Positions 24,278 through 37,807 of a stretch of 39,400 bases of DNA are shown here, one piece after another. The position numbers and the translations under genes were made by a program. The DNA comes from a virus (Duplodnaviria; Caudoviricetes). How positions within the stretch are numbered: position 1 is the first letter of the stretch; each line of letters begins with the position of its first letter. The notes below the pieces were generated by a model. That model saw only the letters and a list, made by a program, of their open reading frames with translations, ran no database searches and had not been told where the DNA came from. Location of the stretch: IMG/VR virus record IMGVR_UViG_3300035014_000032, positions 1 through 39,400 of that record. One strand, given 5' to 3'.

Positions 24278-27200
24278 TGGCTGATGATTATAGCCGCGAG
24301 ATTGCGGATCTTGCGTTGCGTCGTGCCGCGCTTTCGCTGGGGGCGAACAAGCCGGCGCCCGATGCTGCCGCCAAGGCTAACCGCGTGGCACGAGCGACGG
24401 GCTTGCCGGTTGCCACGGTCGATGACAACCTCGACACGTTGTCCCGGCAGGTGGAGGTGTCCCGCGCGCAGCATATCATGCGCCGAAACCCAGAACTGGC
24501 AGCATGGGTGGCAGACACCCGCAATGCCGCTGTCGGTTCGGATGATATTGGCGGGCTGGCGCAGAACGCCAAGGCTTGGAGTCGGGCGCGCGAGGGGTCA
24601 CTGACGAACGCGCCCAAGCCGGAAGGCACGCTCTGGAACTCGCTGAAGGGCATCGGGACGGGGTTTGTCGAGACGTTTGCCCGACTGCCGAATGACATTC
24701 AGCGAGTCGGCGCAGACTGGCTGCCGTCGTTTGATCTTGCTGCGCCCGGTACGCCGCGCCTCAAGGACGCCGGGCAGGACAACGCGCGCCGCGCGAGTTT
24801 GCGATCGACAGCCCGCATTGATGCGGCCACCCCCGACTTCAAGTCGAAGACGGCGCGCTACCTCTATGGGGGGGTGTCCTCCCTTGCTCAGACGCTGCCG
24901 GCGGTCGGCGTGGGCGTTTTGACCGGAGGCGTTGGAGGTCTGGCGGCAGCCGGCGCGCAGGCTGCGTTGCCGGCCTATTCCAAGTACCGCGATCGAGGCG
25001 GTACGCGCGGCGAGGCGTTGCTAGGTGGCGCGTTGGAAGGCGGCATCGAGGTTGCCACCGAAAAACTGCCGATGGACTTCCTCGTCAATCGCTTGGGCAA
25101 GCTCGGGGCGGGCAAGTTCATTGCCGGCTATCTCGGGCGGGATATGCCCGGCGAAATGGCTGCCTCGCTGGCGCAGAACGCGATCGATACCGCCATTGCC
25201 AACCCGGACAAGACGTGGGGGGAATACCTCTCGGAACAGCCCGACGCGCTGATGCAGGCGGCTGTGTCATCGCTCATGTCGGGCGCCTTCTTCGCCGGGG
25301 CGGGCAAGGTCGGTCGGCGGTTCGCGCAGGCGGATGCGCGGAATGCCCAGGCGGCAGACGATGCGGACACGCTGACCAAGGCGATGGACAGCGCTGCGGC
25401 GAGCAAGACGCGCGCCCGTGACCCGGAGGCGTTTCAGGATTTCGTCAATCGCTTCACCGAAGGTTCGCGGGTCGAGAATGTCTTTGTCCCAGCCGAGACG
25501 GTCGCGACCTACTTCCAGTCGCAGGATATCGACTATCGCGAGGATGACTTCTGGCGCGATTACGCCGGGCAGATCGAAGAAGGTTTGCAGACCGGGGGCG
25601 ATATCGTCCTGCCGACCGCTGCCGCTGCTGCGCACCTGTCGGGTACGCCGGTATGGGACGCGATCAAGAATGACGCCCGCACCTCACCGGGAGGCCCGTC
25701 GCTGGCGGAGGTGGAAAGTCAGCGCGCCAGCTATGAAGAGACAATGGAGCAGCTTGGCTCACAGATGGCCGAGCAGATGCAGGCGGAGCAGGAAGCTGAT
25801 GCGCCGCGCATGGCGATCTACAACGATATTCGCGACAAGCTGACCAATGCTGGGCACACGCAAGAGTTCGCCGCGATCAATGCCGAACTGGTGGCACAGC
25901 GCTATGCCACGCGCGCGGCACGGCAGGGGCAGTCGCTGACCGGGCAGGAGACGGTGAACATCACCGTCAACGCCGTGCTGCCGGAGAATCTTGCGCCGAT
26001 CGTCGCGAAGGACGCGGGCGACGTGGGCATTCAGAGCGTGATCAACGTCATGCGCCGCGGGCTCGGGGTGAAGTCCGACCGGCTCAAATTCGGGGATAGC
26101 CTGGTCGAGTGGATCTCGAAGAATGGGGGCATCGAGGACAAGGGCGGCGATCTGACCGCGCTGGGCGCTGATGCTTGGCACAAAGGAAAGCCCGGCAAGC
26201 GCAAGCTGATCCGTCCGATGGAAAGCGGACAGAGCTCGTTCATTGCTGGCGCGCGGGACAATGCGAACACGCCCGACGAATTGGCGTTGCGGGCGCAGGA
26301 GGCCGGATACTTCCCGGCAGGCGAGCGGCCGGAGATCGGGCAGCTATTCGAAGCGATTGAAAGCGAGCTGCGCGGTGAGCCGGTCTATGCGCAATATGCA
26401 GGCGGGCTGACCGATGAGGACAACACGCGCGCGGCTGCCGAAGAGTTGATGCAGATCCTGGAGCAGCGCGGGCTTGATCCCGAAAAGGCGACCGATCGCG
26501 AGATCAAGGAGACGTTGCAGCAATACCGACAGGAGCAAGCGGACGCTTACCGCCAGGACGCCGACTTTGGCAGGCGCATGATGGCCGTTGTTTCCGATCG
26601 CTTTCCCGGCGTTAAGCTCGACCTTGGGGGGAATGGCGGCACGATCACGATTTCGCGCATCGAGGTGCCCAGCAGCGACCGCGATAGTGGGGTTGGCTCT
26701 GAAATTATGAAGATGCTGACGGACGCTGCCGACGCCGCGGGCGTCCGTCTCGCCCTGACGCCAAGCGACACTTTCGGTGGTTCGGTCGGGCGGCTCCGTG
26801 AATTTTACAAACGGTTCGGCTTCAAGGAAAACAAAGGGAAAAACCGTTCCTTTACAACGCGTGAAAGCATGGTGCGGAACCCACCGGGGCAGTCGTACGA
26901 CCAAACCTTCGGCGACGGCCCGCGCGGCCAGATCAGCTTCACACAGGGCCGGTCGATCATCGACCTGTTCCAGGAGCGCAACACCTCCACGTTCGCGCAT
27001 GAAATGGGCCATCAGTGGCTGGAGGAATTGCGGCAGGATGCGGAGCGCGACGACGCAACCGATCAGGTCCGCGCTGACTGGCAGACGGTGCAGGACTGGT
27101 TCGCCAGTCGCGGGCATCCGCTGGTCGATGGCAAGATCCCGGTCGACGCGCATGAGCTATGGGCGCGGGGGATCGAGCGCTACCTGATGGAAGGCAAGGC

Positions 27201-37002: not shown

Positions 37003-37047
37003 GGTGGTGGCGGCCGGGGAGATTGGGCCGCTCGCGTCGGTAGGTGA

Positions 37048-37130
37048 TGGTGGGAGGGTGCGGTTTCGATCCACTCCCCGAAGGAGCCGCTTTACAGGCG
37101 GCTTGCCAGAGCCACTGGCTTTACCCTCCC
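37048..37130 (-). tRNA. tRNA-Tyr(GTA), 8/4 fold
   Basis: GGGAGGGT/ACCCTCCC-A-CCA; anticodon arm AGCCGC-CTGTAAA-GCGGCT; T arm GTGG-ATCGAAA-CCGC. Confidence 0.85.
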
Positions 37131-37132
37131 GG

Positions 37133-37222
37133 TGGCGGAGCGCGGTGGTCTCGATCCACAGCCATCTTGCAATGACCCTGCCGCTTAGCAGGCGGAGCCG
37201 GCGCCTCGCCGGTTCGCGCTCC
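37133..37222 (-). tRNA. tRNA-Ser(GCT), 8/4 fold
   Basis: GGAGCGCG/CGCGCTCC-G-CCA; anticodon loop CTGCTAA; long V arm; T arm GTGG-ATCGAGA-CCAC. Confidence 0.9.
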
Positions 37223-37226
37223 AGTT

Positions 37227-37312
37227 TGGCGGAGGGTGGAGGAATCGAACCCCTAACCTTGCGGATAGCCTAGTTTTCGAGACTAGTTGCGCTCCATAGC
37301 GCGCCACCCTCC
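37227..37312 (-). tRNA. tRNA-Ser(CGA), 8/4 fold
   Basis: GGAGGGTG/CACCCTCC-G-CCA; CTAGT-CTCGAAA-ACTAG; V arm with GCAA loop; T arm GGGG-TTCGATT-CCTC. Confidence 0.92.
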
Positions 37313-37394: not shown

Positions 37395-37423
37395 GCGTTA
37401 GCGCCGCTTGCGCGTGGCGTCAA
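37395..37423 (-). promoter_or_regulatory. Sigma70-type promoter for the tRNA operon
   Basis: Minus strand TTGACG-N17-TAACGC, with GC just before the -10. Confidence 0.65.
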
Positions 37424-37435
37424 TACGGCTATTAT
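37408..37435 (+). promoter_or_regulatory. Sigma70-type promoter for the divergent ncRNA
   Basis: TTGCGC-N16-TATTAT; six nt later lies G37442, the first base of the tRNA-like stem. Confidence 0.65.
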
Positions 37436-37441
37436 GCGCGG

Positions 37442-37549
37442 GCTGCGGCGGCATGGATGGACATGCTCGTTTGACAAGGCTGACGACCCCGACGCCTCTA
37501 CGGCGAAGGCTTAGCAGGCAGTAGCCGGTATCAAGCCCGGCCCGCAGCA
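37442..37549 (+). ncRNA. tRNA-like RNA with extended anticodon arm
   Basis: 7-bp GCTGCGG/CCGCAGC stem, D-like hairpin GCATG-GATGGA-CATGC, T-like hairpin GCCGG-TATCAAGC-CCGGC abutting the 3' strand; no encoded CCA. Confidence 0.7.
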
Positions 37550-37558
37550 ACGAAGTCT

Positions 37559-37689
37559 CCCGCTCTGCACGGAGTAACGCCGATCGCGACGGCGCCGTGC
37601 ATCGGGCTGGTCTGCCCTGCCACGTGCAGGTGCAGCAACGGGGAGGCGGTGTAGGCCGAAAGGCCGGTGATGCCGCCTCCCTTGTCGCT
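37559..37689 (+). ncRNA. Structured RNA hairpin array (possibly same transcript as the tRNA-like RNA)
   Basis: Three stem-loops; GAAA tetraloop and G-U pairs favour the plus strand. Confidence 0.55.
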
Positions 37690-37694
37690 CATCC

Positions 37695-37722
37695 ACTAAA
37701 CACAAGCCGCTTTGTGTTTAGT
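37695..37722. terminator. Probable bidirectional terminator or processing hairpin
   Basis: Perfect 11-bp ACTAAACACAA/TTGTGTTTAGT stem between converging units. Confidence 0.55.
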
Positions 37723-37807
37723 CAAACGCACCTTCACGATACACAAACCACCACCAACGCCATCAACGCCAGCGTCACCATGAAGCCGGAGACAAAGCGG
37801 CGGTCGA

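Follow-up and report, generated by a model that had tools for sequence, protein, structure and literature searches.

Sequence comparison places an element at positions 37442-37549 of a 39.4-kb IMG/VR provirus record (hereafter the window, meaning the whole stretch of DNA analysed) in a real RNA family that Rfam does not catalogue and whose transcription is predicted. Its members combine a conserved tRNA-like frame with a hypervariable insert of 39-208 nt, and comparison of related loci indicates that inserts are exchanged between conserved ends.

The tRNA-like frame and its distribution

The window carries repressor, helicase, terminase, head, tail-fibre and endolysin genes. The element lies on the + strand, downstream of the endolysin region and divergent from three tRNA genes, and a second, identical copy is present on a 312-kb contig (locus L612). 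Its features and those of its immediate surroundings are as follows.

37048-37130, 37133-37222 and 37227-37312 (-): tandem tRNA genes Tyr(GUA), Ser(GCU) and Ser(CGA), with 8-bp acceptor, 4-bp T stem and encoded CCA
37408-37413 and 37430-37435 (+): -35 and -10 hexamers of a candidate sigma-70-type promoter, separated by a 16-nt spacer, recognised by eye
37442-37448 (+): 5' strand of the closing (acceptor-like) helix, 7 bp with 37542-37548, from folding and covariation
37449-37466 (+): 2-nt C-G linker and D-like arm, from the family alignment and covariation
37451-37466 (+): D-like hairpin, 5-bp stem and 6-nt loop, with GG in the tRNA 18/19 register
37467-37523 (+): insert (cargo), 57 nt, its final base being the conserved A
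37467-37480 (+): 5' segment of the insert, common to the window and three relatives
37488-37510 (+): variable apical hairpin of the insert, containing a CUA triplet
37511-37523 (+): 3' segment of the insert, common to the window and two relatives
37524-37541 (+): T-like arm, 5-bp stem and 8-nt loop
37542-37549 (+): 3' strand of the closing helix and A37549, with CCA not encoded

The original prediction, made from the window alone, had described a tRNA-like topology in which a 7-bp stem and 2-nt linker lead through a D-like hairpin with GG and a 57-nt middle region to a T arm and a final A without CCA, and this description agrees with both sequence and folding. The candidate promoter would place transcription start at or near G37442. 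Here the earlier claim of a promoter and +1 was borne out in part: the two hexamers are visible by eye, but a promoter consensus scan reported zero sites and the candidate was not among its output. Across the family, a -10-like hexamer lies just upstream of 34 of 252 members, compared with 8 at a control position. Folding of the element as a single sequence gave a modest signal (z = -1.69, with 9 of 200 shuffles equally good); the frame is secure because its homologues covary.

Homologues were collected by exact-pattern scans of IMG/VR with the T arm, the D arm and a gapped pattern, each of which returned at least 120 loci; the tool estimated about 560, 690 and 460 stretches for the three patterns in IMG/VR and about 260 stretches in GTDB genomes. 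A whole-frame finder, in which all frame parts were required, recognised frames in 249 of 361 viral loci, amounting to 184 unique members, and gave no matches in control DNA (791 kb shuffled, 240 kb from unrelated viruses). Full frames were also present in 73 of 120 genome loci, bringing the total across phage contigs, bacterial genomes and cultured phages to 259 distinct members. As labelled, the frame-bearing genome records are chiefly alpha- and beta-proteobacteria, with some Acidobacteria, Planctomycetes and Verrucomicrobia. Four cultured phages, DMCA (host Caulobacter), phiKX1 (Komagataeibacter), Pan3 (Pseudanabaena) and PhiPLPE (Iodobacter), carry a full, unannotated copy, and both arms match in phiKX2, also from Komagataeibacter. 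The copy in DMCA (PQ480021) spans about 25554-25687, roughly 134 nt. A scan with a D-arm 16-mer served as a negative control: the matches shown were coding sequence, mostly in one recurring frame that we take to be terminase-like. When a 731-nt region was compared with cultured phages by BLAST, only tRNA matches appeared among the best 40 of 417 records. No sequencing run containing the element was listed as an RNA run; among four runs checked, the element occurred, in fragments, in the short contigs of one DNA run. Two members with different inserts occupy a single locus at L275, L291, L181, L320 and L468, and at L275 both lie inside an array of 18 tRNAs.

The original prediction had called for a covariation check in homologues. 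Since the finder selects for pairing, we located the arms by sequence alone and compared observed pairing with partner shuffles, a statistic that ignores relatedness among sequences. In the D-anchored set (81 of 118 with a T arm by motif), the closing helix was paired in 77-81 of 81 sequences at six positions, as against 32-56 after shuffling, and pair 3 of the T stem in 81 of 81 versus 49.5. In the T-anchored set (81 of 117 with a single D arm), D-stem positions were paired in 77-81 of 81 versus 53-73. The closing helix, T stem and D stem thus covary, and every one of the four Watson-Crick pair types is seen in the closing helix.

Family-wide conservation extends from this closing helix to the D-like arm (5 bp, with G18G19), the A that precedes the T stem and a T-like loop of 8 nt. 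At 16 nt the D arm is as long as in canonical tRNAs, with GG at 18/19, and its loop ends in GGA in 257 of 259 members, a count partly fixed by the search patterns. The final seven bases of the T-loop are identical in 217 of 259, a figure likewise biased by those patterns; among D-anchored hits the loop varies toward ordinary tRNA T-loops plus one added 5' base. We accordingly read the 8-nt loop at 37524-37541 as a tRNA T-loop variant with one additional 5' base. The elbow bases G18, G19, U55, C56 and A58 are present and near-invariant in the family, and from near-invariant G18G19, C56 and A58 we infer that D loop and T loop come together in a tRNA-type elbow, which the added T-loop base could weaken relative to the canonical form. 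The closing helix reaches at least 13 bp in about 40 members, spanning 13-21 bp in this subgroup. At ten loci (L146, L155, L172, L221, L240, L489, L490, L503, L524 and L534) helices of 14-19 bp have recurring ends, which are possibly RNase III sites in early operons.

Relation to tRNAs and other known RNAs

Family RNAs are probably neither charged nor decoding, because they have no anticodon, no encoded CCA, and a variable discriminator and helix length. The acceptor of the window element comprises 7 bp followed by A, while in the family the helix extends to at least 8 bp in 195 of 259 members, position -1:73 is paired in 192 of 242 (versus 99.5 ± 6.2), NCCA is encoded after the seventh pair in 6 of 259, and all four bases occur as discriminator. 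At 19 member loci picked for holding tRNAs, CCA is encoded in 55 of 74 tRNAs versus 1 of 20 members. A stem that could serve as a conserved anticodon stem at the insert base was present in 62 of 184 members, with 58.7 ± 4.8 expected, and anticodon-type loops in 5 of 171 inserts, with 3.9 ± 1.9 expected. The RNA is thus probably uncharged, in line with the missing CCA noted earlier, and CCA is encoded in few members; what had been described as an extended anticodon arm is instead an exchangeable insert without a conserved anticodon stem or loop.

Database searches placed the element in none of the established classes. At the gathering threshold, Rfam gave zero matches across the whole window, and ARAGORN and Rfam neither called the element as a tRNA nor made any tmRNA call in the window; the designation as an unclassified tRNA-shaped RNA thus withstood the Rfam search that had been proposed for it. 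A canonical or suppressor tRNA was rejected, there being no conserved stem at the insert base, no enrichment of anticodon loops and no call by either program, and an allo-tRNA (8/4 or 9/3) was rejected because the T stem of the family has 5 covarying base pairs and the anticodon arm is absent.

YrlA, tmRNA, C4 and twister RNAs have tRNA-like or cloverleaf folds that occur in phages. A tmRNA is marked by the G3:U70 alanine identity, CCA and a tag reading frame; G3:U70 occurs in 2 of 259 members, stop codons are not enriched in inserts, and there is no ARAGORN or Rfam call, all in keeping with the earlier distinction from tmRNA. The distinction from YrlA Y RNAs, in which a permuted tRNA-like domain has its ends in the Ro60-binding stem and a Ro60/TROVE gene is adjacent, was equally sound: the family has the order closing stem, D arm, insert, T arm, and Rfam returned no YrlA match. 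Among the PHROG labels of the 142 nearest ORFs, none is Ro60/TROVE. C4/CI antisense RNAs, which have cis targets in the phage genome, were rejected on the basis that Rfam gave no match and complementarity of inserts to their own loci is not in excess.

With the Rfam cutoff relaxed to E-values up to 10, the sole match was a twister fragment over the T arm. Twister ribozymes comprise P1, a cleavage loop L1 and two pseudoknots. That the element is a twister-related self-cleaving ribozyme is extremely improbable: its T arm comes close to the consensus of the twister P4 hairpin, but the match is partial, covering model positions 14-50 of 68 (the P4 hairpin region) and scoring 14.5 bits where the threshold is 67.2 (E = 9), the T-like loop drifts toward ordinary T-loops across the family, and the cleavage-site loop and P1 have no counterpart in the element.

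The nearest known RNAs are RNA1 and RNA2 of phage T5, RNA C and RNA D of phage T4, and the engineered tRNA scaffold. T5 RNA1 and RNA2, annotated in AY543070 as 'tRNA-like stable RNA with unknown functions', resemble the family in having an acceptor-like stem, D-like and T arms and a non-anticodon insert, and in lying in a tRNA cluster, but differ in their 7-nt T-loops and their D-loops; on T5 the frame finder recovered RNA2 alone, and at relaxed score only. T5 RNA3 (L672, 7878-7950) folds with an 8-nt T-like loop as in the family. The T5 RNA1/RNA2 type is a descriptive class taken from GenBank annotation rather than a defined family, and the element shares its layout. T4 RNA C and RNA D (species 1 and 2 RNAs) are likewise stable phage RNAs from a tRNA cluster, and RNA C ends in a T arm; neither, however, gave a finder match even under relaxed settings, the T-loop of RNA C is canonical, and there is no insert in common. 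In the account given in PMC9697503, they are expressed late and their function is unknown. The scaffold engineered by Ponchon, Dardel and colleagues, as presented in PMC3753655, retains the acceptor, D and T arms and has arbitrary RNA in place of the anticodon region, but it is a synthetic construct with a real tRNA body and a hairpin-shaped insertion site, whereas in the family no stem is conserved at the base of the insert and CCA is not encoded.

Allo-tRNAs and other irregular tRNAs are described by Mukai et al. (PMC5389517) as having non-canonical bodies, in bacteria and phages, with some of them not used in translation; in allo-tRNAs the branches are of the 8/4 or 9/3 type and are accompanied by an anticodon arm and a long variable arm. 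The divergent tRNAs of the window are of the 8/4 type, like these allo-tRNAs, unlike the family with its 5-bp T stem and absent anticodon arm. The main text of PMC5389517 describes 8/4 tRNA-Ser and tRNA-His in alphaproteobacterial phages and no 8/4 tRNA-Tyr. Our literature search returned no description of the family, of insert exchange or of a family several hundred strong, and no occurrence of the family's long motifs among the 20 of 40 papers listed for them; an unnamed candidate could be present in the supplement of PMC5737381 or among the IMG/VR structure diagrams and alignments of PMC10690425, and six supplementary files of the latter gave no matches to the family. On these comparisons the family is best described as predicted members of the T5/T4 sort of phage tRNA-like stable RNAs, with cassette exchange, a feature we did not find in print.

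Variation and exchange of inserts

Inserts are so diverse that 161 of 171 clusters by BLAST, and 168 of 203 by shared words, are singletons. We conclude from comparative evidence that inserts are exchanged between conserved ends, because like flanks hold unrelated inserts and the same insert occurs in different flanks. Members L277 and L438 have flanks that are 96% and 97% identical around inserts that are 39% identical, with background identity averaging 38% and reaching 50% at the 99th percentile. The pairs L548/L555 and L284/L354 likewise have unrelated inserts, within looser flanks, so that clear same-slot swaps amount to a few pairs, one of them with near-identical flanks. Like inserts with at least one unlike flank were found in L438/L320 (88%), L460/L534 and L490/L521, at 88-90% identity overall, and short modules reappear within otherwise different inserts.

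Taken as a whole, inserts fold no better than flanking controls (median z -0.35, n = 184, versus -0.32, n = 121), and tolerated filler would therefore also fit. Particular motifs are nevertheless enriched on the sense strand alone, among about 20 motif tests tried: GNRA hairpins occur in 42 of 259 members, as against 15.6 ± 3.6 in shuffled sequence and 5 on the reverse strand, and loop-E-type motifs number 26, as against 10.7 ± 2.9 and 4. Kink-turns were not significantly enriched in inserts (37 versus 31.7 ± 5.2), and ANGGA (CsrA-type) motifs, stop codons, UUCG loops and anti-Shine-Dalgarno motifs (20 of 171 versus 17.9 ± 3.8) were not enriched there either. A small insert subfamily (L126, L176, L320 and L438) has a fixed loop-E-type internal loop between a variable outer helix and a hairpin; pairs in the outer helix look compensated by eye only, and RNAalifold reported no compensatory pair among the four.

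Some inserts are themselves tRNA-like, giving a shell inside a shell: L201 1531-1601 (-), L232 218-287 (+), L484 and L237/L323. Some of these are tRNA bodies and others have D-like and T-like arms; two, L201 and L232, score above the Rfam tRNA threshold. At 40 long-insert loci, Rfam at the gathering threshold found only tRNA, tRNA-Sec and tmRNA genes, and at E 0.05 in 20 further loci it found tRNAs, two of them nested in inserts, and one unrelated Burkholderiales-2 motif.

The insert of the window has three relatives, L606 (on a contig shared with L177), L642 (on one shared with L621) and L711. The first 14 insert bases are common to all four bar one position and the last 13 to three, and the apical hairpin is different in each. 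This comparison, together with folding, does not bear out the helices of the irregular long arm drawn in the original prediction: GTTT/AGGC is in neither the MFE nor the centroid structure, for GCTGA/TTAGC a rival CUG/CAG register is preferred by the MFE and by the four-sequence consensus, and the supposed 7-nt apical loop CU-CUA-CG folds as 4 bp with a 5-nt loop, the 7-nt form needing a C-G pair to be opened.

The CUA loop had been likened to an amber anticodon, and a tRNA mimic of this kind had been joined with the divergent 8/4 tRNAs into a single counter-defence module. CUA does lie in the apical loop, and three 8/4 tRNA genes run divergently 130-400 nt away, but a CUA loop occurs in 1 of 259 members, that of the window; the apex differs in all three insert relatives, the predicted loop has 5 nt, and the tRNA trio is missing beside L606, L642 and L711, with ARAGORN finding no tRNA gene at all next to L606 or L711. 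Such a module is not conserved and we regard it as highly implausible; on the sequence comparison the CUA loop is incidental, and a decoy role would more likely depend on the insert or the elbow than on an anticodon. A different tRNA-like shell, with a Ser/Leu-type D arm, a canonical T-loop and no clear anticodon, lies about 110-210 nt downstream of the member at L642, and L606 has a homologue of the window's small gene alongside in reversed orientation.

Genomic context and candidate functions

Several further structures surround the element. At 37004-37030 (-), just downstream of the tRNA-Tyr gene, a 6-bp hairpin followed by C-A-C-C-A resembles a minihelix with a CCA end. At 37550-37695 (+) a GC-rich stretch folds at -72 kcal/mol into a structure with a long GAAA-capped hairpin, and at 37697-37728 an operator-like inverted repeat of about 11 bp lies beside a TTGACT hexamer on the - strand. 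Elsewhere, some members sit inside large tRNA arrays. No recurring protein partner emerged from 142 ORFs, which a crude ORF caller identified beside about 70 of the 115 members with long loci: PHROG hits were obtained for 36, no top family appeared more than twice, and hits were spread over lysis, recombination, packaging and regulation. Such a context is consistent with an RNA gene that stands alone, with no protein dedicated to it.

Our leading reading, held with roughly even confidence, is that the frame acts as a stabilising shell displaying the insert as a probable protein-binding decoy. The RNA would be transcribed from its own promoter here and, elsewhere, released from tRNA-cluster or early-operon transcripts, a route suggested by the -10 elements, the adjacent tRNAs and the long closing helices. 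Docking of the D and T loops as an elbow, with the closing helix joining both ends, would yield a self-folding, nuclease-resistant frame, and inserts would probably be replaced by recombination with the conserved ends as homology arms. The insert would then be the active end, a compact folded RNA that may titrate away an RNA-binding protein of the host, for instance one involved in defence or regulation. The engineered tRNA scaffold counts as a precedent and supports this shell-plus-insert reading: in PMC3753655, RNAs are produced stably in E. coli by inserting them at the anticodon site of a body that keeps the acceptor, D and T arms.

The evidence on frame and insert can also be apportioned the other way, with the frame itself active, an uncharged decoy in which the elbow attracts enzymes or sensors that recognise the tRNA elbow and T arm, and the insert as tolerated filler reshuffled by recombination. 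Frame bases are conserved far beyond what engineered scaffolds or pairing need (as in the T-loop count given above, with its pattern bias), inserts have no global folding signal, and their lengths spread fivefold. Set against this, some inserts are about 90% identical across different flanks and host genera, the GNRA and loop-E enrichment is strand-specific, and the 5' segment of the window insert is kept in four phages while its apex changes; we judge an active frame rather unlikely, though a serious contender.

Variability of the insert would also suit an antisense guide that uses short seeds against host or rival-phage mRNAs, with the frame as a stable carrier and the C4 RNA of phage P1 as a model. 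Many inserts are weakly folded, and 37721-37728 is an 8-nt complement of the conserved 5' segment of the window insert. That complement, however, is missing from the fetched flanks of the three relatives, own-locus complementarity is not in excess among 74 members (a comparison that short seeds could escape), the own host genome matched no better than four other genomes for the two inserts tested, and anti-Shine-Dalgarno motifs show no enrichment, which together make a guide function improbable. We give still less credence to a cis-acting processing handle, in which the tRNA-like fold would guide RNase P or other nucleases to free neighbouring RNAs. ARAGORN at a relaxed threshold called a tRNA or tmRNA no more than 500 nt away from 34 of 184 members, in several cases at 2-30 nt, a subgroup has the 13-21-bp closing helices, and few members (23 of 258) have a U-run just downstream. 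Yet the predicted start in the window is the first base of the element, so that there is no leader to remove, tRNAs are absent from the vicinity of most members, and conserved, exchanged inserts would go unexplained. The particular version in the original prediction, a handle for the downstream RNA, went unsupported, as 37550-37695 lacked a significant homologue among the loci that were compared.

Returning to the shell with a protein-binding insert, what these data provide is one layout in hundreds of phages, a sharp sequence signature and comparative evidence for cassette exchange; members in cultured phages make the question of frame or insert, and of a protein partner, directly testable. 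If inserts are decoys, the family would be an extensive, so far unexploited class of RNA factors against host defences, and the engineered tRNA scaffold would have its counterpart in nature. A stronger version, which we put forward only tentatively, is that of a natural RNA display: hundreds of recombined folded modules, each an aptamer-like inhibitor or mimic aimed at a host RNA-binding immune or regulatory protein. Were this true, the family would already be an inventory of RNA effectors that counter defence, and it would explain the stable RNAs of T4 and T5, which have long gone without an assigned role.
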